Virus record (IMG/VR): IMGVR_UViG_3300028048_000105
DNA from: a virus
Lineage: Duplodnaviria; Heunggongvirae; Uroviricota; Caudoviricetes
Strand: one strand, 5' to 3'
DNA length: 64,000 nt
Part shown: in pieces, positions 12,322 through 36,118 of the stretch
Layout of the letters: every line of letters starts with the position of its first letter
How positions within the stretch are numbered: position 1 is the stretch's first letter
The notes under the pieces: generated by a model
Told to the model about the DNA's origin: nothing
Databases searched by the model: none
Seen by the model: the letters and a program-made list of their open reading frames with translations, nothing else
Made by a program: the position numbers and the translations under genes

Positions 12322-12700
12322 GACAGCCATAGATACAAATGTAACTTTAAACAAACACTGATATAACCTTATAAATATAGATATACGGGATCAAACTGAG
12401 TCCCTGGGCCGCATCCTGAGCTGAGTACACAGCTGTTCTCCTGATGCATAAACCGCTTTGCCGGGAGGCCCTGAAAGTTAATCCCTTCTGTAGTACGCAG
12501 GAGTGGCTGCAGCAGCAACACCGCTGTGGAGATCATCCATAAGACTACAACAAAAAGTGCGTATCGTCATCATAGGCTGACGGAGGTTCCCAAAGGGAAA
12601 ATCCAGATGTCCGGCGTACGTTTCTCAAGTGATGTCTTCTGGACCTTAAACCTGCCGCGTCTTCGCGTGCAGATCAGTTAGCTCGAAACAAAGTCATCAC
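12322..12700 (+). ncRNA. Candidate TnpB ωRNA / structured right-end region
   Basis: GC-rich, no credible ORF, ends in inverted copy of the 30-bp hairpin (12652-12681); position 3' of tnpB as expected for ωRNA. Confidence 0.3.
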
Positions 12701-13430
12701 GCAAAGTAGTATCACTTCCTGGGACGGGACTGCGTTTTTTTGGGAAACAGTACTACTAAAACAGTACCACCCGCACGAAGCAGGAAACAGAGTAAAGAGC
12801 GGAGGCAAAAAGTATGGCAGGCAGCGGGGCAGAAACCCATAGGAAAATTGGGCGGAAAGTAAGAAAAACAGGATACGCGCCCCGTGCCCCGCGCCAGACG
12901 GCTTCAAAAATCGTACCACCCGCGCTTCCATTCTGTACAATTTCCCGCACAGGAAACTATGAAAGAAGCCGTGCGGCGCACAACAAAAAACCGTGGATCT
13001 GTAATTTTTATGAGAAAATGGAGGAAAATTTATATTTGATATGGATGGCAGTGAAGTCTCACACAACCAAGGTTGCGTGCTTCCATACCCGTTTTTCTGG
13101 GGCATGGACTCGCTGACTGAAGATACAGTGAACTGCGGACATCCGGTTCCCGGATGCGTTTTCGTGGAAGCTGAGGCAGAAGCTGGTAAACAGAAGCGAA
13201 GCACCATTGGATACCACAACACCTGATGCGCAACCGCGTGGTTGCATTCCCAATGTCGGGTCCACCCGATCAGGCATCCATCGCTAACTGATCTGCACGC
13301 GAAGACGCGGCATCTTCCAGCTTAGTTTTTCGTGACAAAAAGGGCGCAGCTCCGGCCGTGTCTTTTTTTGTTCCATATTAAAGATGTAAATAAAGATGTA
13401 AATAAAAACATATCTGAAAGGAGAAAATGC

Positions 13431-13628
13431 ATGATTACGAAAGAATATATGACATCTGTTGAAGAATTAAAAGAGGAATTCAAAATTGGTTCCGTGGTCG
13501 AACAAGACGGGAAACTTCTTAAAGTCGTGGAGATTAATAACGCTCTGCCAACAACCTGTTTTGCATCTTTCCCAAGCGTGACATTCGAAGAAGTGCAAAA
13601 AGTTTCCCAGTCTGGCACCACCAGGTAA
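13431..13628 (+). CDS. hypothetical small protein (module B upstream)
   Basis: CATATTAAAGATGTAAAT(x2)..GAAAGGAGAAAATGC ATG. Confidence 0.4.
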   Translation: MITKEYMTSVEELKEEFKIGSVVEQDGKLLKVVEINNALPTTCFASFPSVTFEEVQKVSQSGTTR

Positions 13629-13747
13629 TCCGGATAAAATCCATCACACTTACAAAATGAACTTATGGCACAGCTTTGGCTGTGTCTTTTTTTTGTTTCA
13701 TATTGAAGATGTAAACCGATTTTTTAAACATCGAAAGGAGAAAAACC

Positions 13748-14590
13748 ATGAAATACGCAAGATATGATATTATCCTCCAGGAAAAGGAAGTAAACGAGGA
13801 TCTTTTAATCAGAATTGACAACAGCGAGGCATCCGGTGCGATCCCGCTTGAGCTGCCGTCACATGACCGAAAGGAAAAAGTTTCCGGTTACATGAACTTT
13901 CAGGGAGCGAAAGCTCTCGGATACAACCTGTCAAACAAGGAGCTGCTTGACAAGCTGAGTTTTCTCATCTTCAACACCCGCTCCGATTCCAGGTGCAGCT
14001 CGTATGACGAATACGAGCTGGGAGATCTTAAGGTGCTGGTATTCCGCCATATGGATCCAGAGGAAATTCCGGAAGATATGAGGGCAACAGACTCTGTATC
14101 TGAGATTTTCCCGAACTGCATCTGGCACAAGTTCCCAGATGGGTCCGGGTATCTTGATGGACCACGGAAAGGCCAAAAGCTTATCCAAGGTTACGACCTC
14201 TCTACTAACGAATTCAAGTATCGCGGAAACTGGTACTTTTTCGCTGACACTGACTCTGGACACTATATTACCTGCCAGGAGGCGATCAGCCAGATGGAAG
14301 TCCTCTTGTATAAAACACCAGATACTTTCGTCCGGCTTTACATCAACTGGTATGGCTCCTGCAACGAGTATGCACTTGAAGCAGAAGCGGAAACCGGAGA
14401 AAATGCAGGTGCGCTTGCCCTCCAGAAATTCCTCGAAACCGCAAAGGAAGAGGAACTGGTTGGATACATGCTCTATTCAACAGGCGGCCGTCAGGATGAG
14501 ATGTTTGATTTCCTGATGACCGGGCTCCCTGGGGTATCCGGGAAGAAGAAGGAAAATATCAGAAAAATTATGGAGAAAATGTACGCTTAA
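13748..14590 (+). CDS. hypothetical protein (module B upstream)
   Basis: 280 aa ORF; TTTCATATTGAAGATGTAAAC..ATCGAAAGGAGAAAAACC ATG. Confidence 0.55.
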   Translation: MKYARYDIILQEKEVNEDLLIRIDNSEASGAIPLELPSHDRKEKVSGYMNFQGAKALGYNLSNKELLDKLSFLIFNTRSDSRCSSYDEYELGDLKVLVFRHMDPEEIPEDMRATDSVSEIFPNCIWHKFPDGSGYLDGPRKGQKLIQGYDLSTNEFKYRGNWYFFADTDSGHYITCQEAISQMEVLLYKTPDTFVRLYINWYGSCNEYALEAEAETGENAGALALQKFLETAKEEELVGYMLYSTGGRQDEMFDFLMTGLPGVSGKKKENIRKIMEKMYA

Positions 14591-14668
14591 CCGCGGACAC
14601 GCAAAAGAGCTGCAAAAATCTGCAGCTCTTTTTTACTGTCTGTCTTTTCCCACTTTTTTTCTGCAATT

Positions 14669-14757
14669 TCCATCCATGCGCCTCATAAGGCGCAACAAGC
14701 CGGTAGCATCCGCAGCCTGATTGCATTTTAACCCATACATCCCATAAGGGATGCAAC
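14669..14757 (-). CRISPR. Satellite mini-array: 2 repeats (degenerate TTTCCATCCATGCGCCTCATAAGGCGCAAC and TTTTAACCCATACATCCCATAAGGGATGCAAC) + 28-nt spacer
   Basis: Same family and orientation as the main array at 21722-22148; hairpin stems GCGCC/GGCGC and CATCCC/GGGATG. Confidence 0.5.
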
Positions 14758-14926
14758 TGTAAATATACTTACTACATAAAAGATAGGTGTTATTCTTTCG
14801 CTTTTTGGCTTTTCTTCTATTCATTTTTAATCATCCTCTTTAAATTCTTCTACGTTTTCCAACATGATCACTCTCGGTCTCACCAGTCCCGCCCACCGGC
14901 AGATATGTTCCAATTTATTTTATAAC

Positions 14927-15331
14927 CTATGTGTCTTTCTCTGAGGACTGTTTATTCAACTCTGCCTTAATCTTGTCTATAATTTCATTTATCGGTAATG
15001 CTGAAAAATACTCATCAAGTGTTATGCTGACTGCATCATTTCTTTTCCCGTAAAGTTGGAAAATAATATTTGTCTCTTTATCCATGTACTCTCCAAACTC
15101 TATAAGCTGATCTGAATACAGATAAACACACTCTTCGATTATGTATTGCTGCAGCTCATCATGTTCCTTTGGAATATTACTTTCCCACACGCATGATAAA
15201 GGACAATCCTGCGCATTGACTGGCTCATTATTGACTATCTTTTCATATAGTTCGGGCTCATTATCTCTTACGTTCGTAATTGTTTTATCCGATACAGTCC
15301 CATAAGTTTCATATTTCTTGAAAAGCCTCAT
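14927..15331 (-). CDS. hypothetical protein
   Basis: 134 aa ORF. Confidence 0.45.
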   Translation of the reverse strand: MRLFKKYETYGTVSDKTITNVRDNEPELYEKIVNNEPVNAQDCPLSCVWESNIPKEHDELQQYIIEECVYLYSDQLIEFGEYMDKETNIIFQLYGKRNDAVSITLDEYFSALPINEIIDKIKAELNKQSSEKDT

Positions 15332-15594
15332 ACTCCTTCAACAGTTTTTTCTGCTCAAAAATATCCTTGATAACAATTGACGCAAATACTACAAGAAGTA
15401 AAAGCGTTACGTTTGATGAATCCATAGCATATTTTTCTAATCCCGGTATAAGTCTTACTAACATAAAAATCTCCTTAAAACAATATTATACTCTCCAATT
15501 TGCAAATTTTAAATGAAAATCAAAATTAAAGGAATCAGAAATATCTTTTCAGCTAAGAAATATCAAAACACCCAAAAAAAGTTGCGGATATGTA

Positions 15595-16140
15595 TCAACC
15601 TCCAAGCTTTCCCAGTTCTTCTTCTATTTCTGCAATTTCTTTGCTAAAACTATTATAAATCTGTTCACTCACATCATCGTACTTTTGTAAATAATCCTGT
15701 AAATATATGAGTCGTTTTTCTAACCTTTCTCGTCTGCTGGAAGAATCTTGAACGGCATCTACAACCCCATCCCATTCAGCAGCTTTCTTTTCCATTTCAT
15801 TCAGCAAAGTCTGTTCAGACAATCTCTTCTCATATTCAGCGAATGCTTTCTTTATAATATCCGGAGAAAGAACAAATAACATCTGATTGCAACTAATATT
15901 ATGGAATGAAATGGATGGATCTATTACAGATTTAAAGTAGATTTCCCCTGCGTCGAACAGCCGTTTTCCAGAATGTCCAAACAAAATTGTTTTTTCCCTG
16001 TACTGGCATGTGTACACCTTAACGTACCCGGACACGACTCCATCTCTACCCCAAAGGAGATCAACAGCATACGCTTTTCCTTTCCACAACACCGGGTAAA
16101 ATGTATACCCATTGGGTATTTTTCTCTTTTGTATTCCCAT
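15595..16140 (-). CDS. hypothetical protein
   Basis: 181 aa ORF; coiled-coil C-terminus. Confidence 0.5.
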   Translation of the reverse strand: MGIQKRKIPNGYTFYPVLWKGKAYAVDLLWGRDGVVSGYVKVYTCQYREKTILFGHSGKRLFDAGEIYFKSVIDPSISFHNISCNQMLFVLSPDIIKKAFAEYEKRLSEQTLLNEMEKKAAEWDGVVDAVQDSSSRRERLEKRLIYLQDYLQKYDDVSEQIYNSFSKEIAEIEEELGKLGG

Positions 16141-21295: not shown

Positions 21296-21506
21296 ATTTT
21301 TCCCTCCGTTACTGTTACTGTAATGTTTTTAAACATTGAGTTAACTAAATTAAGATTTAAAAGAACTCCATGTTTATCCATTACAATATACATATTGCGC
21401 CATCTTCCAAATCGTCAAAAGGCTTTGGAAACTTTTTTTATTTTTTTTCAAAAATTTTCCCACATACAAAAAAGCTGCCCCTGAAAGAGACAGCTTTTAC
21501 AGCGAG

Positions 21507-21692
21507 TTACTTTTGAATTTTTTGGATCAGCTCGTTAACATCCACAGTATACAGCTTCGGCTTTCCGTCCGGATCAAGTTCCTGGACCATGCTCTGCCCG
21601 ATACTGTCGGCATACACTCCGAAACAACTTTTGTACGACTGCATCCAGACCGTCTCATCCTCGCTAATAATCGGAAGATCATCCTTCAGCAA
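21507..21692 (-). CDS. truncated paralog of the C-terminal domain of lipoprotein 36119..36496
   Basis: shares ..VWMQSYKSC.G..A.SIGQSMVQELDPDGKPKLYT.D.NELI.K.QK with 36119..36496. Confidence 0.4.
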   Translation of the reverse strand: MLKDDLPIISEDETVWMQSYKSCFGVYADSIGQSMVQELDPDGKPKLYTVDVNELIQKIQK

Positions 21693-21721
21693 TTACTCAT
21701 TTTTTCTAATTTATTTTCCTT

Positions 21722-22148
21722 AATCCATATACCCCTCGCGGGGCGCGACTACCTTCCCCGAAGGTATGGATTTGTCACAATTTTTTCAACCCATGCACCC
21801 ATAAGGGATGCAACGTTTTACCATGGAGAAGATACAAAGGGCAGCAGTGATTTCAACCCATACATCCCATAAGGGATGTAACGAGTAACTCAAAAATGTT
21901 ATGATCATATTAAAAATATTTCAACCCATACATCCCATAAGGGATGTAACGAGGAGTACAAAAAACGCTCGATGCGGTATTCTCTATTTCAACCCATACA
22001 CCCCTTGTGGGGTGCAACTCGCGCTGTTTATGGATCTGCCACAGGAATTTCAACCCCTGTACCCCTCGTGGGGGTACAACGTGAAAAATATGGTGTTCCT
22101 CATTTTATATATTTGTTTCAACCCATGCGCCCCTCCACGGGGCGCCAC
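21722..22148 (-). CRISPR. CRISPR array, 7 repeats (one degenerate), type I-C-like repeat (minus strand GTTGCATCCCTTATGGGATGTATGGGTTGAAA)
   Basis: Repeats at 21722-21750 (degenerate), 21784-21814, 21851-21882, 21919-21950, 21987-22018, 22048-22080, 22116-22148; spacers 29-36 nt; repeat stems differ by compensatory changes. Confidence 0.8.
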
Positions 22149-22397
22149 TGTAAACGCGAACGGAAACCTGTTTTCCTGTCCGCCAAAATATTAAACAATT
22201 TTCCTAATTAACCCATCCACAACTGCCTCCCGTGGTTGGGATTCGCGCTCTCTTGTACATCTCGCCTTCTCTCCCCCGTGCGAACCTCCTCTGGAAACTA
22301 CGTACGTCTCCGGTTCGCACCTGGACCAGGCATCCCAATACAACCGGCAGGTGCAGCCCTCAAAAAACGGGCTGCTTTGTGGCTGCCGGAAGCACTT

Positions 22398-23309
22398 TTA
22401 AATCATGCGCGTCATCGTCACACCGCCCGGGATTGCATCCTCATGGATCTTTACGGTGTAATCAGAGTATTTGCGAGGAAACTCGACATCATCGTTCTTC
22501 TTGACATCAACTGCTTCAAATAGCTTGTAGGAAGGACAGTTGCCGAGTTCGCTGTCATGCCTGAATACAATCAGCTCACGTACCGCCATCTTCCCGCGTG
22601 CTGCGGAATGGTCATTTTCAAACATATTGATGATGGCTTTCCAGAGAAGATCCAGATCATCTTCGGAAAAACCGGTGGTCTTGCGGGCAAGGTTGGCAGA
22701 AACATATCCTTCCACGCGGTAGAGACCATAAGGGATAATGCTCTTTCTTCCCATCTCGGTGTTCTTCTTTTCCGCATCCTTTTCAGTTGTGATCGCAACT
22801 CTGGTTACGGTAATATCCTGGCTGAAAACAGGATCAATACTTTTTGCAAAGCCAATCTGTACCGGGCCGCGTACCTGTCCACAGTTTAATGCCGCCTTTG
22901 TAAAAGTGGTCATAACAGCACCGAATGTACGGATATCGTAGTAGTTGCTGCACATATAGTCACGGAGCTTAAGGTCTACGTTCTCATCGGTCTTTTTCAG
23001 TTTCTTGACATCCTCAAGTGCCTTCTTACTGTCATCAACATCAACACCAAGGTTTTCGATTGCCTTAAGATCGCTGCGGTTCAACGGAATACCCTCTTTG
23101 ATGTAGATCTTGAAACCGTCTGCATCCTCCTTTGCGGTTTCCACATAGTTGCGGATCTTTCGCTTTAAGCAGGCGTCTGTCACAAGACCGATGCCGGTCT
23201 CTGGATCAACCCTTGGCATGTTTGCGGCATCCGGATCGCCGTTTGGGTTTCCATTCTCTACGTCAAATAATACTACAAAATCATATCTGTTCTGAATCGG
23301 TTTGCTCAT
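22398..23309 (-). CDS. cas7: Cas7 (Csd2), type I-C
   Basis: MSKPIQNRYDFVVLFDVENGNPNGDPDA..VDPETGIGLVTDACLKRKIRNY is the Csd2 N-terminal signature; GGAGG RBS; ORF-track start 23468 is an upstream extension. Confidence 0.85.
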   Translation of the reverse strand: MSKPIQNRYDFVVLFDVENGNPNGDPDAANMPRVDPETGIGLVTDACLKRKIRNYVETAKEDADGFKIYIKEGIPLNRSDLKAIENLGVDVDDSKKALEDVKKLKKTDENVDLKLRDYMCSNYYDIRTFGAVMTTFTKAALNCGQVRGPVQIGFAKSIDPVFSQDITVTRVAITTEKDAEKKNTEMGRKSIIPYGLYRVEGYVSANLARKTTGFSEDDLDLLWKAIINMFENDHSAARGKMAVRELIVFRHDSELGNCPSYKLFEAVDVKKNDDVEFPRKYSDYTVKIHEDAIPGGVTMTRMI

Positions 23310-23310
23310 A

Positions 23311-25050
23311 TTAGTTTTCCTCCATCTTCTCTGCATTTGTCTGGTTGCTTTCAGGATCGCTGTCTTTTGACTTATTGCTTGTATATTCTGCCTGCATCTG
23401 GTGGTAATAACCAAGTGCGAATTTGCCCTGATCCTCATACGTGAAACGCTTCGGGAACCCCGGATCATCCGCTGTAACCGGAATCAGGCCCATCAAACTT
23501 TGGATCTTAGCCGCAAAATAATATCCTTTGCCCGGCTTTGTGCGTTTCAGCTTGCTTAAATGGCTGTTGGACAGTCTGATCAGCACCGGAAATACCGATC
23601 CTGGCGTTGTGCATGCGGAATTGTAAAACTTGTCACAGATCGTCTGGTTGATGTTATCAATTGCTTCCTTCTGTGTCCTTTCCATTACTGCAAACAGTCT
23701 GCCGAGGATATACGCACGGTCTCTGCAGTCTTCGTTTAATACTTCCATATTTTTTCCTTCCTCCCATTTATAGTTCTTTATTAAAAAAGCCTTGATGACC
23801 GCTGCTTTTCTGTAAGTAACGCCTTTGTGCTCGGCACGGATGCGGGACAGCACTCCTGCATACAGGCTCTGCGGATACTTGGTATCCGAAATGACCGACT
23901 GTAACGTCATCGCAGCCATATGCGGAACCGGGGTCCTGTCTGTAAGGTTCTGGTTTACCGTCTCCATAAGCATCTGCCAGATATTGATGAATTCCTGATC
24001 CTCAAACACCGGCTTTATGATCATCATCCGGCTGGCATGTTCCAACAGGTTCTTCCAGATCACTCCGATGGCATCTTCATAGAAGAACCGGACTGCAATT
24101 CTGCCGGCATTCGGTGCAAGACAGAGCACGTACAGTTTTTCATCCGGATCTGCAAGGACATGATCTTTTTCATTGGCGCTCCCCATCATCTTCCGCAGTC
24201 TGCTTACATCATCCACATCCCCGGAATCCGTCCAGAAGACCACCATGGAATCTCCTACCTTGCTGTGGTACCCGTCCGTGGAAAGCAGGTAATTTAATGC
24301 TGTCACATATGCATACGCCACATAGGTGCTGATCGGCGCGTTATAACTTTGTGTTTTCTCATAAGACTCAAGGGACGCGCCGTTAAAGGATACAAGCGCC
24401 GCACCGGATGACTGTGTTCCCGGCACTCCTTTGACCTTCCCATGTGTGCGGGCAATCTCTGCTTCCTTCCCGGTAACCAGGCATCTTCCTGTTACCATTT
24501 CATATGGTACGCTGCTGTAATCCAGCCATGCTCTGCGCACGGTCTCATTGTCATGCACATATTTGCCGTCTACCTCAAATACGAGGTTCCCGCCTTTATA
24601 AAACTTTTCCGCAAGCTTCGCAACTGCCGGGTGATCCAGTGCCTGTTCCGGATCCCATGAACGGAAAAAGCGGCACACTGCCTGTGCTGCCGACTCATCC
24701 ACGACATCAAGGATATCAAGATGTTTCTTCCTTGCTGCTTTAAAACAGTCCAGCGTACGCGGGCTCATCTTCTCATCAATTCCAAAGAGATACTTTGCAT
24801 TTTCGCAGAGAAAGCCGGAAGCAATGTTGTTACCCCGGGTGACCATCTCTGGAACCTGCATAACTGTCGGGATTTCAACAGTCTTTTTCCCTCTCTGTAT
24901 CTCCCGCTTTACGGAAACAATATCCTGGATTATCCCATCGTGGTTTAACACCACCGCATAGGATACCTTTGCATTGCACCAGCCGGGACGGGATACTTTC
25001 CCCTGGTCTGCAAGCGTTTCATATAATTTTACAAGTGACTGCAGGATCAT
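23311..25050 (-). CDS. cas8c: Cas8c (Csd1), type I-C large subunit
   Basis: MILQSLVKLYETLA N-terminus and 579 aa size match Csd1. Confidence 0.85.
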   Translation of the reverse strand: MILQSLVKLYETLADQGKVSRPGWCNAKVSYAVVLNHDGIIQDIVSVKREIQRGKKTVEIPTVMQVPEMVTRGNNIASGFLCENAKYLFGIDEKMSPRTLDCFKAARKKHLDILDVVDESAAQAVCRFFRSWDPEQALDHPAVAKLAEKFYKGGNLVFEVDGKYVHDNETVRRAWLDYSSVPYEMVTGRCLVTGKEAEIARTHGKVKGVPGTQSSGAALVSFNGASLESYEKTQSYNAPISTYVAYAYVTALNYLLSTDGYHSKVGDSMVVFWTDSGDVDDVSRLRKMMGSANEKDHVLADPDEKLYVLCLAPNAGRIAVRFFYEDAIGVIWKNLLEHASRMMIIKPVFEDQEFINIWQMLMETVNQNLTDRTPVPHMAAMTLQSVISDTKYPQSLYAGVLSRIRAEHKGVTYRKAAVIKAFLIKNYKWEEGKNMEVLNEDCRDRAYILGRLFAVMERTQKEAIDNINQTICDKFYNSACTTPGSVFPVLIRLSNSHLSKLKRTKPGKGYYFAAKIQSLMGLIPVTADDPGFPKRFTYEDQGKFALGYYHQMQAEYTSNKSKDSDPESNQTNAEKMEEN

Positions 25051-25706
25051 CGAAACACCTCACTGTTCCCGACATCAATGATGCCATTTTTCATAACTGC
25101 ATGGTAATACATTGGCTGGATATCTCTTCCGCAGGAATAATCCAGGTCATAAAGCATCAGCCCGAAATCCCTGTCCGGAAGTCCTTCATGGCAGGATGCG
25201 ATCTTTTCATCCCCCTCGCAGAGTTTAAAGTGCGCGGGGAATTCCCTTACCCCGAAATACGGCATCGAATAGCACGCCCCTTTTCTTGCCCTGTTATTAA
25301 AGATGCTGATAAATTTCGCCGGGCTGTCCGTCGGGCTCGCCTTGTCCGTCATTTCAAAATGTGCTTCAATCACGTAGCTGACATCACGGAGGATCACGGA
25401 TGCCCTCTGGATAATATCGTCTCTTGACGAATTATACAGCTTGACATCGCCGCCGTTATATGCCTGTAACATATTTGATTTCGGTATCTTGCTGAGAAGT
25501 TCATTCCTTCTTACGCTTGTAGTGGCAATCGGATTTAATACGTGGATTTTATCTACGTACCACCGTAATCCCGGATGCCAGTAGATGGATTCCAGAATCC
25601 CCCTAGCTGCCGACGGAGTCATCACATCATAGGTATACCGTTCTGTTTTCAGTTCCGGTCTAGTGAACAATGCATAATCTCCCCAGACTTTCAGTTTCAC
25701 TCCCAT
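25047..25706 (-). CDS. cas5: Cas5d (Cas5c) endoribonuclease, type I-C
   Basis: MGVKLKVWGDYALFTRPELKTERYTYDVMTPSAARGILESIYWHP; module A promoter at 25806-25838. Confidence 0.8.
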   Translation of the reverse strand: MGVKLKVWGDYALFTRPELKTERYTYDVMTPSAARGILESIYWHPGLRWYVDKIHVLNPIATTSVRRNELLSKIPKSNMLQAYNGGDVKLYNSSRDDIIQRASVILRDVSYVIEAHFEMTDKASPTDSPAKFISIFNNRARKGACYSMPYFGVREFPAHFKLCEGDEKIASCHEGLPDRDFGLMLYDLDYSCGRDIQPMYYHAVMKNGIIDVGNSEVFR

Positions 25707-25926
25707 TCTTCTTTTTCCATTCCTTTTCATCATCATCCATACATCCGAAGATGCAACTTCTGTAATTTCTGTTATCCGGCAAGACATACATCCTGCCCTT
25801 TCAATACACATATTGCGCCATTTAAAAAATCGTCAAAAGATTTTGAAAACTTTTTCAAAAAAAATTGCAAAAAACTGCAGCCAGTTAAACTGACTGCAGT
25901 TTTTTGCGATCTTAAAAATCAATATG

Positions 25927-25958
25927 TTTTACCCATGCACCCCATGTGGGGGCGCAAC
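25927..25958 (-). CRISPR. Solo CRISPR repeat (TTTTACCCATGCACCCCATGTGGGGGCGCAAC)
   Basis: Same family and orientation as main array; lies between 25966..26838 and the cas5 promoter, next to bidirectional terminator hairpin 25875-25906. Confidence 0.5.
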
Positions 25959-25965
25959 AATAGTC

Positions 25966-26838
25966 CTACCACTGGCACTTAATGGTGCTGGCATCCGCAA
26001 GTTCATCGGATGAAAACAGAAGGTAAATGTTGGACAGAATATCCGCATATTTTTTCTTATCAAAATCGGAGTTGACCTGGCGGTCCACCAGATTTCTCAG
26101 TTTATCCGAAAACTCTTCTGACAACTGGACATTTCTGACTGTTTTCACTTCACCAACAGAAGAGTCGATCAGAAGAAGATATAACGGGACTTCGTCTTTT
26201 GCCGTAAAGTCGAAATCCGACAAATCTTTTGCAAGTTTTGCATGGTACGGCGCATCCATCCATGACAGGTCACCGGCTTTTACAGTAAACAGACCGGTTC
26301 CGTTCATCTCCGTAAAACGGATTTCCAGTCTGGAATCCGGGGAAAACTGTGCAATCTCATTTTCTGTGGGATTCCTGAAAAATACACGGATCTGCACGTA
26401 ATCCTTAACGATATCAACAACTACTGCTTCTGCATGGTTTGCAAATTCCGGATAGCATTTCCCTTGCTTGTAAGGAAACTCTCCGGATACTGCTTTCTCT
26501 GTCTCACTGGCATCTGCAGAAATTATTGATGTCTCATAATATTCTTCCGGAATACGCACTCCCAGCTTCTCACTGTATGGAACCTGGCATATTACATGGT
26601 CTTTGTACAGCCGGTATCCATTCTTAAGAACATATGCCACCGGAACCGGGCACTCGTAGTCATCCAGTTTGTCCCCTTCTCCTTCTGCTTTCTCCAACGT
26701 ATGTTCCGGTACAGCCATGATGACATGACCGGTTTCTCCATCACTCACAAAATAGTTAAATTCTCTCAGTTCTTCCGGAAGCCCCGGATAATTATCTCTT
26801 TTTGCAAAATTTCCATAATCCCTTACGCTATCTCTCAT
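25966..26838 (-). CDS. hypothetical protein
   Basis: 290 aa ORF. Confidence 0.5.
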   Translation of the reverse strand: MRDSVRDYGNFAKRDNYPGLPEELREFNYFVSDGETGHVIMAVPEHTLEKAEGEGDKLDDYECPVPVAYVLKNGYRLYKDHVICQVPYSEKLGVRIPEEYYETSIISADASETEKAVSGEFPYKQGKCYPEFANHAEAVVVDIVKDYVQIRVFFRNPTENEIAQFSPDSRLEIRFTEMNGTGLFTVKAGDLSWMDAPYHAKLAKDLSDFDFTAKDEVPLYLLLIDSSVGEVKTVRNVQLSEEFSDKLRNLVDRQVNSDFDKKKYADILSNIYLLFSSDELADASTIKCQW

Positions 26839-27161
26839 TCTCTTGCCTTCTCCTTGAATATATCTTTTATACTTTTAGTATACCACAGGTTCGGCTACGT
26901 GTACACCTCCGCGTTTCAACTCTTACACCCTACAGGTCTCAACTCTTAATCCATGTATCCAACAGCGGCAAGCACTTCGCGATACGGTGTTTCCATGGTT
27001 TTTGTGCTGCCCCACTGCGAAAGCCTGCCGTTCAAACCTGTATTGTACGGTCTTACTGCCTCGCCTCGTACCCGCAGATCATATTGGTTCCCCGCAGAAA
27101 TGCAAGCCCCTCATGGCAGGCAAGTAGATCGTGCTGGTAGTCCTCATCCTTAACCCGGTAC

Positions 27162-27698
27162 TCATCGAACAATTCCTTGTATTTTTTCCACCCCAGAGGC
27201 CATTTCTGTATTCCGGGCATCATGGCAGACGTTCTTCCTAACGAGGACAATATGAGAAATATGCTCCTCATCCGCTCTCAAAACGGCATCTGAAGCGGCA
27301 ACGTCATAGTTTAAGTTGAAGGTGCAGAAAGCGTTCTTCCCCTTAAACTTATCCAGCTCAAAGGTCGCAATATTTGCTCTGACGAAGCCTCCGTTCACGG
27401 CCAGCCAGTCGATCTTGTGCATCCGTATATGTTCTGCAACATACACTACTTCTTTTTCCATTACTTTCCATCCTATGCTTAAAAAAAAGAACATCCGGGG
27501 AACGATCCCGGAATAGCCTGTGGCTATGCACCTGCTGTCCCACAGCCTCTCCATACAATGTACGCGATGCATGGAAAAGGCATGATAAATATGAAAGGAG
27601 TATTCCTGTGCGCCGATAGTTCCCACGCCAACGCACGCTGCTGTTAATCTGGCGGTTATCGTTATTTTTGGTTCAGCGGGAAATCCCACAGGCCGCAT
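27162..27698 (-). CDS. hypothetical protein (true start probably internal, about 27467)
   Basis: ORF follows module A + tRNA-like leader. Confidence 0.35.
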   Translation of the reverse strand: MRPVGFPAEPKITITARLTAACVGVGTIGAQEYSFHIYHAFSMHRVHCMERLWDSRCIATGYSGIVPRMFFFLSIGWKVMEKEVVYVAEHIRMHKIDWLAVNGGFVRANIATFELDKFKGKNAFCTFNLNYDVAASDAVLRADEEHISHIVLVRKNVCHDARNTEMASGVEKIQGIVR

Positions 27699-27735
27699 CC
27701 GGCTGAATTTGAGAAGACCGTATGAGGCAGTTGAA

Positions 27736-27882
27736 AGGGATATCCGGGAGTCGGACCCGGAAACAGCTTACGCTGCGTCCTCACTATCCCTTTTCCGGGT
27801 ATTGCCCGGAAGCGTAAACAAATATCGAAAGGATTTCTGCCAGCCGGTAACCCTGGCAGCTCGGTTTATGGCCTTTATATGA
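27736..27882 (-). ncRNA. tRNA-like structured leader element, copy 1
   Basis: minus strand: hairpins CTGCCAGCCGGTAACCCTGGCAG, CTTCCGGG-CAAU-ACCCGGAA, CAGC-GUAA-GCUG, T-arm mimic CCGGGUCCGACUCCCGG + acceptor-like GGGAUAG/AUAUCCC. Confidence 0.45.
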
Positions 27883-27883
27883 T

Positions 27884-27915
27884 ACATATTGCGCCATATG
27901 GGGATTCGTCAAGGG
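27884..27915 (-). promoter_or_regulatory. Module A promoter copy
   Basis: ATATTGCGCCAT..ATTCGTCAAG. Confidence 0.45.
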
Positions 27916-27966
27916 AATTTTGAAAGTTTTTGAAAAAATTTTGTTTCATGTTAAATGTGACTTTAG

Positions 27967-27996
27967 TTTCAACCCATGCACCGCATAGGGTACAAC
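27967..27996 (-). CRISPR. Solo CRISPR repeat (TTTCAACCCATGCACCGCATAGGGTACAAC), degenerate stem
   Basis: Immediately 3' of stop codon of 27996..28358 gene; preceded on plus strand by a module B variant TTTCATGTTAAATGTGAC. Confidence 0.45.
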
Positions 27997-28358
27997 TATT
28001 TTCTCTCAACTACATTGAACTTCTTTGTTTTCTCAAATCGCGGCATTTCATTCTCATGGTAATCCGCGGATACATTACAGAGCATATCCCGAAGATTAAT
28101 CCAGTTAATCTTAATCACAGTCATCTCGACCGCTTTTGAACCATCGGAAACCAGTATTTTCTCTCCAAATTTGATTACCGGCGTTTCCACATCTGCATCC
28201 ATACGGAAAGTTAACTCTGTCCGGACCATTTTCCCTCTTGGTTCTTCCTCGTAATGCAGGCAGTTCCTTACGTTCTCAAAACAGCGACCTCCCTGCGAAA
28301 AGTGTTTTTTGCAGGTCAAACATTCCATTTCGTGTTTCCTCCTTCTTTCATAACACAT
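27996..28358 (-). CDS. hypothetical protein
   Basis: 120 aa; module A variant promoter at 28355-28386. Confidence 0.5.
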   Translation of the reverse strand: MCYERRRKHEMECLTCKKHFSQGGRCFENVRNCLHYEEEPRGKMVRTELTFRMDADVETPVIKFGEKILVSDGSKAVEMTVIKINWINLRDMLCNVSADYHENEMPRFEKTKKFNVVERK

Positions 28359-28465
28359 ATTGAGCCTTTTACGACTTCGTCAAAAAGTTTCCGGAAACCT
28401 TTTAAATATTTTTGTCATTTCATATTAAGAATGTAAACAAAACCATTCACGAAGGGAGAAAAATC

Positions 28466-29086
28466 ATGAAAATACAAAGAAATTTCAAATGCAAGGAATG
28501 TGGCATCTTTACAGCAGCTTACGACACCAGGGACAAAAGACTTCTTAGAATATTCCCATGCAAATGCGGGAAAGTTGAGATCAGCGCAAGAGGTATGAAC
28601 TCTTTTGCTATTTTCAAAGGAGACGATTTCGTTGAAAAGCTTCCGATCGAAGAAATCAAGCCAACCGTGGAATACTATCCGGAAGATTACCTTACGATTC
28701 CAGAGGAAATTTATGACCTGATGGAAAAAGCGGAAGGACTTGGGAACAAAATCAACGATACCAATAAACCTGGCGAATATTATAGCGATATTTCCGAGGA
28801 AGATGCTACATTTGAATTGTCTGGATTGTCGGATAACGGCGAAAGTTTAAAAATCTCCGCTAAAGGGAAATTCTTCGATGCATACAGTTGGCATTCAAAA
28901 AATCCCGAGGAAGTCATCAACCGCTTTAAAGAATCTTTGGAACGGTTCATCATTCTTGAAGAAAAAGTGCTGGCAGATGAGATCAATCTGGACAATGTCC
29001 GCAGCATCTGGGACAACGAAGAGTTTGAGTGGTCCAGTGGAAACAGAACACCACTCGATCTATATGACTACGAATTAACATGTTAA
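28466..29086 (+). CDS. hypothetical protein with N-terminal zinc ribbon
   Basis: CKECG..CKCG; module B upstream (TTTCATATTAAGAATGTAAAC..GAAGGGAGAAAAATC ATG). Confidence 0.55.
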   Translation: MKIQRNFKCKECGIFTAAYDTRDKRLLRIFPCKCGKVEISARGMNSFAIFKGDDFVEKLPIEEIKPTVEYYPEDYLTIPEEIYDLMEKAEGLGNKINDTNKPGEYYSDISEEDATFELSGLSDNGESLKISAKGKFFDAYSWHSKNPEEVINRFKESLERFIILEEKVLADEINLDNVRSIWDNEEFEWSSGNRTPLDLYDYELTC

Positions 29087-29265: not shown

Positions 29266-29677
29266 AATTGATTAAAATGAAAGGAAAAGAAAACCATGTT
29301 AAAGATAATGAGTTGTAAAAATTTTAATAATGATTATAGAACATATGGCGATTTCAGCAATATGTTTACTTTCTCATGCTCAAAATCAGGAAAAACATGG
29401 GGACAGAACGATTACTATACACCTTCCCGCAGTCGATTTCGATTTTAAACCAGGCACTTAAAACCGAAATATTGCAAAGCGCAGATGGCCGCGGAGAGAA
29501 GAAATTTCTTGATGCGGCTTTTTTATTGTTGAAAAAGTCATGGACAGGTAGCTGAGATGGATTAGCGAGGGACTGAAAATCCTTACAGGGTGGATCATTA
29601 CCACTCCTGTCCACTCCGCAGCGATGCGGTAAAAAACTGAATGGATAAGAGAAAACAGGCACTTCTTTTATCCGTAT

Positions 29678-29749
29678 GCATGTGAAGTGTTGTTGGCGGC
29701 ACACCTGCCTTCCAAGCAGGACGGGCGGGTTCGAGACCCGTCACATGCT
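29678..29749 (+). tRNA. tRNA-Gly (anticodon TCC)
   Basis: Manual fold: acceptor GCATGTG/CACATGC, anticodon loop CTTCCAA, T-arm GCGGG-TTCGAGA-CCCGT. Confidence 0.65.
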
Positions 29750-29750
29750 C

Positions 29751-29822
29751 TGATCCGTAGCTCAATGGTAGAGCACCCGGCTGTTAACCGGGGCGTTGAG
29801 GGTTCGAGTCCCTCCGGATCAG
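29751..29822 (+). tRNA. tRNA-Asn (GTT)
   Basis: acceptor TGATCCG/CGGATCA, D-arm TAGCTCAATGGTAGAGC, anticodon loop CTGTTAA, T-loop TTCGAGT. Confidence 0.75.
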
Positions 29823-29827
29823 CTCAT

Positions 29828-29909
29828 GCGTTGGTAGTCCAGCGGCGAAGACAGCTGACTGTAAATCAGCCACAAAGAAACACCGGAGGTTCGAGTCCTC
29901 CCCAGCGCA
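29828..29909 (+). tRNA. tRNA-Tyr (GTA), long variable arm
   Basis: anticodon loop CTGTAAA, long variable arm, T-arm GGAGG-TTCGAGT-CCTCC. Confidence 0.7.
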
Positions 29910-29913
29910 CTAT

Positions 29914-29986
29914 ACTTCCGAGGACAAACAGCAGAGTCACCGCCCTGTCACGGCGGAGATAGCGGGGTCAGCACCCGTCGGAAGTG
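29914..29986 (+). tRNA. noncanonical tRNA-like, anticodon GTC (Asp); possible pseudogene
   Basis: Good acceptor (ACTTCCG/CGGAAGT) and anticodon arm (CCGCC-CTGTCAC-GGCGG) but D-loop lacks GG and T-loop is GTCAGCA. Confidence 0.4.
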
Positions 29987-29991
29987 TTCCT

Positions 29992-30064
29992 GCTCCTGTA
30001 GCACAACTGGCAGTGCATCTGATTTGTAATCAGAAGGTTTCCGGTTCGAAGCCGGACGGGAGCT
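29992..30064 (+). tRNA. tRNA-Thr (TGT)
   Basis: anticodon loop TTTGTAA, T-arm TCCGG-TTCGAAG-CCGGA, acceptor GCTCCTG/CGGGAGC (one G-U). Confidence 0.7.
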
Positions 30065-30068
30065 TTAT

Positions 30069-30140
30069 GGATCTGTAGTATAAAGGCTATTACACCCGGC
30101 TGTCTACCGGAAAACGAGGGTTCGATTCCCTCCTGATCCG
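30069..30140 (+). tRNA. tRNA-like, anticodon GTC (Asp) with several stem mismatches
   Basis: canonical T-arm GAGGG-TTCGATT-CCCTC; acceptor with one mismatch; anticodon loop CTGTCTA. Confidence 0.45.
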
Positions 30141-30145
30141 CTCAT

Positions 30146-30219
30146 GTGCCTGTAGCTCAGTTGGCAGAGCACGCGACTTTTAATCGCGGTGGCGTCGGGT
30201 TCAAGTCCCACCAGGCACA
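30146..30219 (+). tRNA. tRNA-Lys (TTT)
   Basis: D-arm TAGCTCAGTTGGCAGAGCA, anticodon loop CTTTTAA, acceptor GTGCCTG/CAGGCAC. Confidence 0.7.
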
Positions 30220-30462
30220 CTAAATATTGAAAAATTCAAGGAAAGGAAGGAAAAACAATGATGACAACAGAAATGAGACAGTGTCCACAGAGAAGTATCA
30301 GTCAGCCGCAGTCATGCAGCTGGCGCAGTTGTCGTGCTCGTAAATACCGTCTCAAATTGAAAGAAATGTGGTCATTGCCTGGGAATTTCTGGGAAAATGT
30401 TGGAAATACTTAAGAAAACGGGGCATACATCTTTCGATTGAGAGGTGTGTGCCTTTATTTTT

Positions 30463-30545
30463 GCTGTACTGGCTCAACCGGAAAAGCAGCGGTCTTAAAA
30501 CCGCCATTCCGAAAGGATATTAGGGTTCGAATCCCTGGCACAGCG
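30463..30545 (+). tRNA. tRNA-Leu (TAA), class II
   Basis: anticodon loop CTTAAAA, long variable arm, T-arm TAGGG-TTCGAAT-CCCTG. Confidence 0.65.
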
Positions 30546-30576
30546 CTCTCCTCCCTTATCAGGGGAACCCATATAT

Positions 30577-30648
30577 GGCATCATAGCCAAACGGCTAAGG
30601 CGTCCGGTTGCAACCCGGAAGGTGAGGGTTCGATTCCCTCCGATGCCT
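30577..30648 (+). tRNA. tRNA-Cys (GCA)
   Basis: anticodon loop TTGCAAC, T-arm GAGGG-TTCGATT-CCCTC. Confidence 0.65.
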
Positions 30649-30653
30649 CTTAT

Positions 30654-30743
30654 GCAGACATATAAAGGTAACTGGTACCCCTCCACACTGCTAATGTGGC
30701 ATGCGGCACAACCGCTGTCCGGGTTCGAACCCCGGTGTCTGCG
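30654..30743 (+). tRNA. tRNA-Ser (GCT), long variable arm
   Basis: acceptor GCAGACA/TGTCTGC, anticodon loop CTGCTAA, T-arm CCGGG-TTCGAAC-CCCGG. Confidence 0.7.
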
Positions 30744-30749
30744 CTATAT

Positions 30750-30817
30750 ACACCTGTCTGATGGACAGAAAGTGGTCTCCAAAACCGCCAACGAGGGTTC
30801 GATTCCTTCCGGGTGTG
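30750..30817 (+). tRNA. noncanonical tRNA-like, anticodon CCA (Trp), shortened D-arm
   Basis: anticodon loop CTCCAAA, T-arm GAGGG-TTCGATT-CCTTC; only 68 nt. Confidence 0.4.
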
Positions 30818-30902
30818 CTCCTTTGTTCTCTTTGCTCACGGGCACGAATCGTGTGGGCGACGCCAGACTTTTCTGTAATTTCATTTAAAAAAGGGATATC
30901 CG

Positions 30903-33188: not shown

Positions 33189-34722
33189 CTACGCAACAAA
33201 TACAAGCCCCTCGTTGTGTCTTATGATCCGGCATTTCTTTGCCGGGTAGTTTGTTTTCTTATCACCATACACACGAAGATACTGACCGTTTGACAACTGC
33301 CCGGACAATACATGGTATTCACCCATGTATTCGAACAGGGCACCAGGCATCAGACGGTCCGGATTGTTGTAACGTCTTGTGCTCTTCTCAACGGTCAGCT
33401 GCGACCGCATCCGGTCTGCCTCTTTCCGGCCATGACATTTAACCTGTTCTTCATACCAGCCGGAAAGTGACGGGCACTTTTGTTCAAACCGCGGTCTGCG
33501 GTTCTTTGCAATGATCTTTCCATTGAGTCTGTATGTCCTCTCCCTCTGGTTATTGATAATTGCACGGTCATGTCTCCGGAACTGTACGATTTTATGTACA
33601 TAGGTAAACCCCGGGGCTGCCGCCGGTATCAAACCGGCACCAAGGCAGGCAATGCAGAAAGCATCTGCTTCGTGCATTTGGTTATCCTTTGTCTTTTCAT
33701 AGCCAAGGGACTGTCTTGCCATGGAAGTATCCCTGCCTGTGCAGGCATTCAGGTGTTCCGTGTCGACATGTTCTGAAAGGCTGCTCCAAATATACGGGAT
33801 TGCCTGGTTTAACACACTTAAGGCACCGTACTTTTTCAGGATACCGGCTTTCAGTTTCTCAAGCCGTGCTTTTGCATCAGGACTGGTATGTACCTTTCCG
33901 TGACAGCATTCACACAGCCCGGCGATGTTCTTTAAGGTATTGGAGCCGCCCTGTGACCGTGGCACGATATGATGGAAATGTCCGATATCGTTTCCACACA
34001 GAAGACATTTGCCGTGCTGCTGGTCATAAACTGCAGCATTGACATCCCCGTAGCCTTTCAGCGGTCCGTTCTGGAAATCAATGCCGGAAGTTTCCGGATC
34101 ATCCATTAATGCAAATGCAAAACGGTTGACTTCCAATGTCACATCCGTGACCGGAAGAAACTTCTGGATTTTTTTAATCACGTTAACATGGGTTTTCACA
34201 AGCTGTCCTGCGCTCGGGGTGAGCCATCCGGCTTCCCTTACCCGGTTGCAGAACCGTGCCTGTGTATTCCGGATAATCCTGCATGTGACGAACTTATCTG
34301 CAGCGTACTGTGGAAGTTTCCGCATGACCATGCCGGCTTTCAGCATGGTGCCAAAACGTCTGGCAAGCCGTTGGCGTGCCTTGCGTTCGCCATTGCGTGA
34401 CGCCCGGCGGTGTGCCCGGCGCTCATCGACCAGCTTTTTGATGTCCTTGTTGCGGGTTTCCACAACTGCCGAGAATACAGGTTCCGCATTTTCGTTGACC
34501 ACGCTTACGCCGATGTTGGTGCGTCCCGGGTCAATGCCTGCCATAAGTGGCTGCAGAACCGGCTCATTCTCATAAAGCAGCTGTATGGTGTAAGGAATGC
34601 GGCAGGCAATCCTTGCCTTACCAGCATCAAGCAGCTTTTTGATATATCTTTTCCTTTTTGTCGGCATCTGCGGTTTCCCGTCCCTGCCAAGCACATATAT
34701 GTAGTCTGTATCCGGCATGTGA
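33189..34722 (-). CDS. iscB: IscB (OMEGA RuvC-HNH RNA-guided nuclease)
   Basis: PLMP-like N-term, RuvC-I GIDPGRTNIGVSV, Arg-rich bridge helix, HNH CLLCG..HHIVPRSQGG..N..LCECCH; start at M-PDTDYIYVL with AAGGAGGG RBS (ORF-track 34919 start is an extension through the ωRNA). Confidence 0.85.
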
Positions 34723-34995
34723 TGCCCTCCTTTTTGTTTCATTAAATGTTGCGTGCAGTACCGCCGTCCAGCGTATCGGACAGCACCGGTTGTAAACCTG
34801 TGCACACCTTGTCGTACTGTTTCCCTAAGCTGGGTGGACACTCTGCATTGTGCCGGACTGGGAAAATCCGGCAGTGCCTGCCTTGTGACACGTATCCATC
34901 CATGCTTCTGCTCAACCACCAGTCAGACTGGATGATTCAGCAGCTCCGAAGAACCGCTTCCTCATGCTCGGTTATTCAATTGCCGAGTTTGGTTG
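34723..34995 (-). ncRNA. candidate IscB ωRNA #1
   Basis: about 270 nt structured noncoding region immediately 5' of iscB, beginning at the element-end hairpin; by analogy with described IscB ωRNAs. Confidence 0.5.
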
Positions 34996-35310: not shown

Positions 35311-36104
35311 TTATGGTTAATCCTTTCTTTTGCAATTTTGAAATAGTTTTCTTCAAGTTCTATACCAATAAATTTACGGTTTAGAAGTTTGCATGCTACA
35401 CCAACCGTTCCAGATCCCATACAATTATCCAGGACAATATCACCTTCATTGGAAAATGTTTTGACAAGTGTCTCACATAAAAGCAATGGTTTTTGGGTTG
35501 GATGCAAATTTGAAGTCAGACAATCTCTTTGGAATTTCCAAACTTGCGTAGGGTAACGCCACCCAGTATCATTATACTCAATTACTTTTTTTTCATTTTC
35601 ATCTGTAAGTTTTCCGAGTTTACCATTTTTTACCCTGTTTTTCCTTAGTTTCCCTTCATGCTTAACCATTTGAGGATTATATGTACATTGTTTTTTATAA
35701 AATACAGATATTGTCTCTACAGTTTTCCCAACTCTCCGTTTAACCTGATTAATATTTGTTAACCGCTCTTTTTCCCAGTAAATATCATACTTGTAATCGC
35801 TGATATTGCTTACCCTTAATAAAGAAGAAAATGGCTCCTGTCCAAACAATACGATTGCAGCATTATCTTTTGCAATACGACTATATTGATCCCACATTGG
35901 TTTAAATGGTATTACGATATCCCATTTGCACTTAGTTGTCCCATATGGCAGATCACATAAAATCATATCTATTGATTTATCAGGAATAGATTTCATTAAT
36001 TCCAGACAATTTCCATTCCACAATTCATAACTGTATTTTTCCAACATATTTAAACCTCTGTGTATCCGTATTTGACGATAAGAAACTGCCCCGGCATGAG
36101 GCAA
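35307..36104 (-). CDS. DNA methyltransferase (N6-adenine/N4-cytosine family, DPPY-type)
   Basis: DLPYGTT catalytic motif and SAM-binding MGSGTVGVA motif; 265 aa. Confidence 0.7.
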   Translation of the reverse strand: MPHAGAVSYRQIRIHRGLNMLEKYSYELWNGNCLELMKSIPDKSIDMILCDLPYGTTKCKWDIVIPFKPMWDQYSRIAKDNAAIVLFGQEPFSSLLRVSNISDYKYDIYWEKERLTNINQVKRRVGKTVETISVFYKKQCTYNPQMVKHEGKLRKNRVKNGKLGKLTDENEKKVIEYNDTGWRYPTQVWKFQRDCLTSNLHPTQKPLLLCETLVKTFSNEGDIVLDNCMGSGTVGVACKLLNRKFIGIELEENYFKIAKERINHN

Positions 36105-36118
36105 CTTTGCGGATCTGA

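Follow-up and report, generated by a model that had tools for sequence, protein, structure and literature searches.

What can a type I-C CRISPR (short palindromic repeats, clustered and regularly interspaced) effector do when the element that carries it encodes neither the helicase-nuclease Cas3 nor the genes for spacer acquisition? The question is raised by a cas5d-cas8c-cas7 operon with its own array, encoded in 64,000 nucleotides of the Caudoviricetes record IMGVR_UViG_3300028048_000105. We call this whole stretch the window; it comes from a metagenomic contig of 81,560 bp, where it occupies positions ~3850-67850. We tentatively favour the explanation that the locus encodes a functional effector-only type I-C Cascade (CRISPR-associated complex for antiviral defence), which would act in conflicts between mobile elements through binding and silencing. 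The configuration belongs to a class already known, of which it is a clean new example; it does not establish another kind of system.

An earlier note, made from the letters of the window, had described these three genes with a same-strand array of seven repeats, a promoter module ahead of them, and no cas3, cas4, cas1 or cas2 in 64 kb. Pfam and repeat calls confirm the operon and array, which it had placed accurately, and the other two points also held. The operon is on the minus strand and is followed by a leader and the array; gene starts were set from homology and from gene calls on identical contigs. The features are as follows (L011 is a locus of a sister lineage described below).

25808-25836, minus strand: promoter-like module TTGACG-N9-ATGGCGCAATATGT, ~100 nt upstream of cas5d
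25725-25757, minus strand: degenerate repeat-like hairpin GTTGCATC-TTCG-GATGT-ATGGATGATGA in the cas5d 5' untranslated region (covariance model 13.4 bits, E = 0.38, a weak match)
25047-25706, minus strand: cas5d, 219 aa, predicted precursor CRISPR RNA (pre-crRNA) endonuclease and Cascade subunit (Pfam Cas_Cas5d, 2.4e-38)
23311-25050, minus strand: cas8c/csd1, large subunit, 579 aa (Pfam Cas_Csd1, 9.5e-160)
23311-23748, minus strand: internal cas11 frame within cas8c, 145 aa, with an in-frame ATG at residue 435
22398-23309, minus strand: cas7/csd2, backbone subunit, 303 aa (Pfam Cas_Cas7, 1.7e-106)
22149-22397, minus strand: leader of the main array, ~250 nt, conserved between the window and L011
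21717-22148, minus strand: main array, seven repeats of 31-34 nt (the last degenerate) and six spacers of 28-35 nt

Cas5d matches the D. vulgaris Cas5c pre-crRNA endonuclease in PDB (1.7e-66) and is 63% identical to Cas5d of Roseburia, which has the closest canonical locus. Pfam scans of the window's open reading frames (ORFs) contained no Cas6 family, in place of which this Cas5d-type enzyme is the predicted pre-crRNA endonuclease. Cas8c is 49.5% identical to the Roseburia protein, its PDB matches being the I-C Cas8 proteins of D. vulgaris and N. lactamica, and Cas7 is 76.6% identical to its Roseburia counterpart. The hidden cas11 typical of type I-C is present: its ATG has GGGAGGAAGGA (a GGAGG-type Shine-Dalgarno) 9 nt upstream, Roseburia cas8c is arranged alike, and PDB Cas11 chains align with Cas8c residues 443-561. 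It would be translated by the mechanism known from other I-C systems. The lengths of Cas5d, Cas8c and Cas7 match those of the host proteins, with no fused or inserted nuclease domain; to judge from its sequence, the operon encodes nothing able to cut DNA.

The hallmarks of type I-C, the Cas3 helicase-nuclease and the Cas4-Cas1-Cas2 module, are absent from the sequence examined, ~78 kb contiguous that cover all but the final 3.7 kb of the contig. Pfam scans of all non-overlapping window ORFs of at least 150 aa, together with 38 smaller ORFs joined as pseudo-proteins, contained no Cas3, Cas4, Cas1 or Cas2, and tblastn with the four Roseburia proteins gave a best E = 0.025 in the window. Iterated I-C profiles of the same proteins (16-21 diverse sequences) had no match up to E = 0.1, either in the window or in the redundant 346 kb of loci from its element family, while a Cas7 profile, the positive control, gave 15. 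The earlier note had said that a cas3/cas1/cas2 block elsewhere on the replicon would contradict it; none lies in ~78 kb of the 81.5-kb contig, and relatives reach 147-212 kb. Ten phage-borne I-C loci of IMG/VR that lack adaptation genes retain cas3 beside cas5-8-7, and therefore the absence of Cas3 here looks like a distinct, stable state. Two further I-C operons without Cas3 and adaptation genes were found in IMG/VR, L055 (on a 124-kb contig) and L043. In L055 (3300035158_000293, 6816-15849), the gene directly after cas5-cas8c-cas7 is an ORF of 1609 aa that Pfam does not match and that may encode a partner protein.

Several candidates for a missing nuclease or helicase partner were set aside. 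One of them is encoded 13 kb from the cas operon:

38850-41153, minus strand: RadD-like superfamily 2 (SF2) helicase, 767 aa, of which ~430 C-terminal residues have no family match

This gene lies 630 nt upstream of a mini-array at 38 kb, with a promoter module and a zinc-ribbon ORF in between. As a substitute for Cas3 it is unlikely: it is RadD/restriction-like, the Cas3 profile did not match it and none of its 30 PDB matches is a Cas3; it has a generic match (6.8e-7) to an 'alt Cas3' model. An HD protein 5 kb beyond the window was discarded as Cas3'', with only a generic PF01966 match and none in PDB. A Tn7-like I-C CRISPR-associated transposon (CAST) did not fit either, as no rve/TnsB or TniQ was found, and a generic AAA ATPase 20 kb away had a sub-threshold TniB score. 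Nor did an HNH-Cascade of the I-E2 or I-F4 kind: Cas5d and Cas8c have no HNH match, and the HNH genes of the window are separate ORFs.

The locus is conserved across samples. The exact window Cas8c occurs in 33 blocks of the assembly collection, with the same gene context on the contigs read, and reading frames are intact across dozens of samples. A second lineage (L011, L071, L072) has the same cas5-cas8c-cas7, with a Cas8c 88% identical, and no cas3 within 10 kb. Between the two lineages dS (synonymous divergence) is 0.74-0.96, and against L011 dN/dS (the ratio of nonsynonymous to synonymous divergence) is 0.033 for cas5d, 0.080 for cas8c and 0.043 for cas7. By these substitution rates the locus is under purifying selection and maintained. 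Outside the element's own cluster, the closest relatives are canonical Roseburia/Eubacterium I-C systems, with the order cas3-DUF3990-orf-cas5d-cas8c-cas7-cas4-cas1-cas2-array. The next-best Cas8c among 5.8 billion proteins is only 51% identical, and no sampled host system is therefore close. The window Cas8c retains all 18 columns conserved at >=90% across 18 Cas3-linked Cas8c proteins and breaks 11 of the 81 conserved at >=70% (canonical leave-one-out range 2-52). Its divergence relative to that of Cas7 gives a ratio of 0.57-0.65, against 0.59-0.62 for canonical pairs, one apparently recombinant pair (1.22) being set aside. An accelerated or degenerate Cas8c was rejected on both measures.

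The array is not alone. With a covariance model of the repeat, 13 minus-strand copies and none on the other strand were located in the window: the seven of the main array and six more of the same family, overlooked in the earlier note, which form two mini-arrays and two solitary repeats (bit scores are those of the model).

14666-14757, minus strand: mini-array of two repeats (44.4 and 37.9 bits) and one 28-nt spacer, with a terminator-like hairpin after it
38120-38217, minus strand: mini-array of two repeats (45.7 and 37.1 bits) and one 34-nt spacer (38153-38186)
25926-25958, minus strand: solitary repeat (37 bits), 8 nt past the stop of a 290-aa ORF
27966-27996, minus strand: solitary repeat (39.2 bits), overlapping the stop codon of a 120-aa ORF

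An AT-rich -10-like block in the main-array leader lies at the same distance from repeat 1 as in the Roseburia leader. The main array is nearly fixed across samples, with two variants. The mini-array at 38 kb lies downstream of a promoter module (38779) and a 113-aa ORF; relatives on 147-kb and 212-kb contigs have the same array with 4-5 repeats. The solitary repeat at 25926-25958 is followed by a strong terminator (25907-25867), just before the cas promoter module. L011 has a four-repeat array at the equivalent of the 25958 site and a two-repeat mini-array at that of the 27996 site, and the solitary repeats would therefore be most simply read as collapsed arrays. L011 and its lineage have ~18 repeats in five arrays. 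A 61-aa ORF (21507-21692, minus strand) begins directly past the degenerate last repeat of the main array; it has a paralogue 14 kb away at 36122-36577 on the same strand (phmmer 1.6e-23) and is missing from the equivalent position in the sister lineage.

The repeats are heterogeneous in sequence and conserved in structure. Six of the seven in the main array differ from one another, and the 46 copies in the window and sister loci comprise 34 distinct sequences, whereas the array of the Roseburia host has ~40 identical repeats. Stem positions are paired in 95.9% of cases and five of the six pairs have changes on both sides, against 20-63% pairing in slid controls, figures that are somewhat inflated because the alignment was fitted to the covariance model. 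Most window repeats end in TGGGTTGAAAT and the host repeat in TGGATTGAAAT, a version that L011 also has in its main array. Between element and host, the 11-nt 5' handle is at most one base apart, and in the L011 main array it is identical. These repeats have the predicted make-up of type I-C (~32 nt, a stem-loop, an 11-nt 3' part that would serve as 5' handle, and a TTC protospacer-adjacent motif, or PAM, the last known from a sister-genome spacer only). In sample L010, a 7-kb deletion has a junction that fuses repeat 5 of the main array with the first repeat of the 14757 mini-array (L010 4286-4445, window 21882-14666). The scattered repeats do recombine, and their divergence with the hairpin kept may be a way of avoiding it. 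The heterogeneous repeats and this repeat-to-repeat deletion illustrate how arrays evolve without a homogenising adaptation machinery.

The region upstream of cas5d has further signals. The earlier note's promoter module, at 25836-25808, is one of ten minus-strand copies of TTGACG-N9-ATGGCGCAATATGT in the window (1956-60255), against a chance expectation of 0. Many operons have such a copy upstream, among them cas5d and the unit with the 38-kb mini-array. The module, a presumed promoter, matches a sigma-70 -10 element poorly; it is possibly an element-specific promoter or a regulator site. At the place of the weak hairpin in the cas5d 5' untranslated region, the repeat of L011 (5152-5183) is clear, at 27.8 bits, and lies ~25 nt ahead of the cas5 start codon. 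The hairpin could reflect an action of Cas5d or Cascade on their own mRNA, or be an empty array (leader plus one repeat). Further upstream, the conserved 290-aa ORF matches nothing in PDB or Pfam. It was rejected as a cas partner or effector on the grounds that a 186-kb relative encodes a 38%-identical homologue, around which 10 kb hold neither cas genes nor repeats. Between this gene and a promoter module, there is an ORF-poor stretch of ~1 kb (26850-27880, minus strand), at whose end lie a degenerate repeat-like pair (26963-26913) and the motif GCTTGCCGCTGTTGG..TAC, which directly precedes repeats at two sites in L011; the stretch may be an alternative leader or a non-coding RNA. Rfam models searched over 21300-28500 gave only spurious microRNA matches, on the terminator hairpin.

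What do the guides target? The earlier note had suggested matching the spacers to phage and plasmid databases and to this genome; for the window's own eight spacers, INPHARED, PLSDB and the window itself gave no target. A seed-pattern search of IMG/VR with spacers 1, 3, 5 and 6 found none, and in JGI metagenomes the spacer at 38153-38186 matched only the element's own array in relatives. Within the window, all real and pseudo-spacers had best ungapped self-matches of 17-25 positions per 28-40-nt guide, without TTC PAM. One self-match does adjoin TTC (spacer 5, 20/35) and is no better than other chance matches. Self-regulatory guides of the CreR/CreA type are not convincing, with self-matches at chance level, and the sequence past the 25958 repeat has only a gapped resemblance to the promoter module. 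Spacers of the sister lineage gave chance-level matches in INPHARED (E >= 0.05, unrelated hosts), one conserved spacer of that lineage had no IMG/VR match, and no spacer matched the Roseburia cas loci in hand.

One spacer of the family does have a target. The spacer TATATAAAAATGATGAATATGTAAAAATAAAAGA is found in L006, whose Cas8c is identical to that of the window, and L011, L071 and L072 carry a version with a 3-nt insertion in the A-run and the first 27 nt identical. It matches 34/34 in two Lachnospiraceae/Clostridium genome bins, where no repeats flank it, and in one bin the protospacer is preceded by 5'-TTC, the canonical I-C PAM. The protospacer lies within a 323-aa gene of unassigned function, whose homologues (88-90% identical) belong to an integrative element that also encodes integrases, a serine recombinase, a Y-family polymerase and regulators resembling ImmA/ImmR. 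Among gene copies 88-96% identical, the protospacer varies at the PAM and at seed position 2 (TTC 34/34, ATC 34/34, CTC 32/34 and TTC 29/34; L022 1000-1033, L021, L073-L075), which would fit escape from CRISPR targeting and is not proof of it. The element family thus aims at least one guide at a rival mobile element, a guide of the sister genomes and not of the window's array.

Spacers also turn over. The sets of the two lineages are almost wholly different, with one spacer common to both, and two internal spacers differ between L006 and the window. In L011, the three leader-proximal repeats are identical and the fourth is off at two positions, a pattern that would be expected after recent insertions. 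As the element has no adaptation genes, its spacers are likely to come from recombination between relatives and, occasionally, from use of the host's Cas1-Cas2-Cas4. In the arrays homologous to 38120-38217 (L023-L037, L011, L025), the spacer TCAATAGAAACAGATGCATT[C/T]G[G/A]AGG[T/C]GTTACAA has three lineage differences, at positions 21, 23 and 27. Either different target alleles were sampled or the spacer drifted; no target was found for it.

How does this locus compare with known systems? The earlier note held that a Cas3-free type I-C system on such an element was undescribed, and the literature, in which partial CRISPR systems of phages have already appeared, does not support this. Al-Shayeb et al. 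2020 (PMC7162821) described a huge-phage I-C variant without Cas1 and Cas2 and with a helicase in place of Cas3, proposing use of host Cas proteins and nuclease-free repression; Altae-Tran et al. 2023 (PMC10910872) listed an incomplete I-C system without Cas3 as a probable DNA binder; and I-C CASTs without Cas3 are known (PMC12669027, PMC11656645). The locus shares with canonical Roseburia/Eubacterium I-C systems its protein lengths, the internal cas11 start, the 32-34-nt hairpin repeat ending in ...TGGNTTGAAAT and the TTC PAM (one protospacer). It differs from them in lacking cas3, cas4, cas1 and cas2, and in having small arrays (1-6 spacers) that are scattered over ~24 kb, with repeats nearly all different. 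Like the variant of Al-Shayeb et al. (PMC7162821), it is carried by a phage or phage-like element, with a Cas5d-type processing enzyme, compact arrays and no Cas1, Cas2 or Cas3. That variant has a helicase for Cas3 and a second, CasPhi system, whereas the operon here has no helicase and the nearest RadD-like gene is the one 13 kb away; the element's proteins are near ordinary bacterial I-C proteins, and were set against the variant by its description.

The likeness extends to other mobile-element systems. Type IV-A3 (10.1101/2023.06.23.546257, PMC11519345) is likewise a mobile-element-borne class 1 effector that lacks both a nuclease and an adaptation module; it targets rival elements, silences them by nuclease-free interference and acquires spacers in trans from the host's type I system. 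A mechanism shared with it would be an analogy, since type IV-A3 has Csf proteins and a DinG helicase and the element has other protein families and no evident helicase partner. The I-C CASTs (PMC12669027, PMC11656645) have likewise kept Cascade and lost Cas3 and the adaptation genes, but the window has no Tn7-like tnsA/B/C or tniQ, and its ISL3 and IS200/IS605 transposases are not linked to the operon. As in viral mini-arrays, solitary repeat units and RNA anti-CRISPRs (PMC10651486, PMC11656645), there are arrays with just one spacer and repeats that stand singly, in some cases immediately behind a small ORF. Unlike these, the element has its own Cascade genes, its repeats are not identical to those of the host, and full arrays occupy the same sites in the sister lineage.

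Under the explanation that we favour, the operon would yield Cas5d, Cas8c, Cas7 and, from the internal start, Cas11. Cas5d would process the transcripts, both of the main array and of the scattered mini-arrays, by cutting at the base of each repeat hairpin, and the resulting crRNAs would join Cascade, which would find TTC-flanked matches on rival mobile elements in the same host. Since Cas3 is not encoded by the element and Cascade has no fused nuclease, the result by default would be a stable R-loop that blocks the rival's transcription or replication, akin to a natural CRISPR interference (CRISPRi). Rare new spacers would come from the host's I-C Cas1-Cas2-Cas4 in trans or from recombination between related elements. 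We infer expression, crRNA processing, binding without cleavage and acquisition in trans. Silencing is favoured by analogy with plasmid type IV-A3, and because nothing in the operon appears able to cut, the helicase and HD protein are not Cas3-like, and the 290-aa gene also occurs apart from cas genes. Should the locus function by binding alone, it would be a natural, compact (~3.3 kb) type I-C CRISPRi module selected to work without Cas3, and useful as a tool. Such a module would parallel, within type I, the plasmid systems of type IV-A, suggesting that loss of the nuclease is a repeated route for CRISPR on mobile elements.

Some observations weigh against binding as the function. Cas8c shows no sign that conserved positions were lost, and this conservation, with its normal divergence, makes a retained Cas3-docking surface possible. 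None of the window's eight spacers has a target found in INPHARED or PLSDB, searched with all eight. The single target found in the family is a coding region, not a promoter. Finally, more than half of a ~200-kb genome probably lies outside the examined sequence. The first of these points bears on the main rival, which we regard as possible but doubtful: R-loops of the element would recruit the host's I-C Cas3 in trans and the targets would be degraded, with 2 kb saved by carrying no cas3. All three proteins have as closest relatives Cas3-containing Roseburia/Eubacterium I-C systems that abound in the same habitat, and element and host share the PAM and, to within one base, the 5' handle. The Cas8c residues of the Cas3-recruitment loop are conserved among I-C systems (Hu et al., 10.1101/2023.08.05.552134), and Cas8c, with all its highly conserved columns retained, shows no excess divergence. 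Spacer turnover would already imply trans use of host adaptation proteins. However, with a compatible host I-C system arrays alone would be enough, as in many viruses (PMC11656645), and an own set of cas5-8-7 suggests independence; no host Cas8c exceeds 51% identity, so co-evolved Cas8c-Cas3 contacts may misfit; and other cleaving phage-borne I-C loci retain their own cas3. Among the functions proposed in the earlier note, competition between mobile elements gained support from the TTC-flanked target of the sister-genome spacer; host Cas3 in trans and Cas3-independent silencing are the two leading explanations. If host Cas3 is borrowed, it would be the first example known to us in which a Cascade encoded by an element supplies a nuclease of the host.

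A variant of silencing that we think rather unlikely is a self-contained, nuclease-free repression of genes, possibly defence genes, of resident prophages or integrative elements, in which hairpins scattered through the element's own operons, one of them in the cas5 5' untranslated region, would double as sites of Cas5d cleavage and binding that tune its transcripts, and host I-C Cas1-Cas2-Cas4 would add spacers in trans; a bolder version has a Cas3-blind Cascade capture host crRNAs and serve as a protein-based anti-CRISPR. It is improbable that the locus is split, with a cas3 or another nuclease or helicase in the rest of the ~200-kb genome or among the unannotated genes. The ~78 kb examined compare with relatives of up to 212 kb, a helicase precedes a mini-array, an HD-domain protein is encoded 5 kb beyond the window, an I-C variant with a helicase for Cas3 was described by Al-Shayeb et al., and the 1609-aa ORF directly follows cas7 in the Cas3-less L055. 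Yet the I-C Cas3 profile matches nothing in the 346 kb of family loci, the helicase is of the RadD/restriction type, the HD protein has its generic match only, and the 290-aa gene also occurs far from cas genes and repeats. Counter-defence is very improbable. Here the solitary repeats would be RNA anti-CRISPRs and the Cas proteins would form decoy or mixed complexes with host crRNAs that do not call Cas3. The element's repeats resemble the host repeat, and two solitary ones stand directly past small-ORF stop codons, as in the acrIC5-racrIC1 operon (PMC10651486); Cas-protein-based inhibitors are conspicuously rare according to a review (PMC11656645). But the sister lineage has arrays with real spacers at both solitary-repeat sites, spacer lengths are ordinary and one spacer has a PAM-flanked target, no spacer matches the Roseburia cas loci in hand, and the ORFs adjoining the solitary repeats match no solved Acr structure. 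We give almost no weight to a decaying remnant of a captured host I-C locus without present function. It would account for the missing cas3 and adaptation genes, the degenerate terminal repeat and the heterogeneous repeats, but the selection data largely refute it: low dN/dS (0.03-0.08) at dS ~0.8 in all three genes rules out decay, and frames are intact in dozens of samples, the hairpin is preserved through compensatory changes and the cas11 start is conserved.

The carrier is a large phage-like mobile element of human-gut Lachnospiraceae, either a phage or plasmid-like. Relatives at 90-94% nucleotide identity over 63-69% of the fetched loci are on the 147-kb and 212-kb contigs, recorded as OODT01000034.1 and ERZ841120 NODE-36, and a neighbouring gene has a homologue on one of 199 kb, which makes a genome of ~200 kb probable. 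Phage affinity is indicated by the ten-gene tRNA cluster, a CCA-adding enzyme, YopX, Lar and HNH genes; the element also encodes a Mob_Pre relaxase and an integrase. The contig flanks beyond the window encode the CCA-adding enzyme, the generic HD protein, an integrase and RadC. The earlier note's picture of the surroundings, with HNH genes, IscB/TnpB elements and restriction-modification (R-M) systems, agrees with the ORF scans: the window encodes HNH genes, an ISL3 transposase, a type I R-M system and methyltransferases, and the following were placed.

29542-30818, plus strand: ten-tRNA cluster (Phe, Gly, Asn, Tyr, Thr, Asp, Lys, Cys, Trp)
33189-34919 and 41654-43117, minus strand: two RRXRR+HNH (IscB-like) genes
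10339-12321, plus strand: IS200/IS605 pair, a Y1 transposase and a 518-aa TnpB-like ORF
50288-58983, minus strand: type I R-M operon hsdM-hsdS-...-hsdR

INPHARED gave only weak matches to the element: unannotated 'Bacteriophage sp.' contigs from human faeces are ~69% identical over the cas genes, and a further match covers 54 nt of the helicase. PLSDB, searched with 36001-44000, contained no relative, and a search of IMG/VR found no record of the element lineage. When 80 Roseburia spacers were compared with the window, none targeted it; one has a partial 19/20 match within the first IscB-like gene. In the tRNA cluster, the gene at 30463-30546 has an irregular anticodon loop, and the CCA-adding enzyme is encoded just outside the window. 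Between hsdS and hsdR lie two extra genes, a 203-aa ORF and one for a 460-aa HATPase/MPN635_N-like protein.

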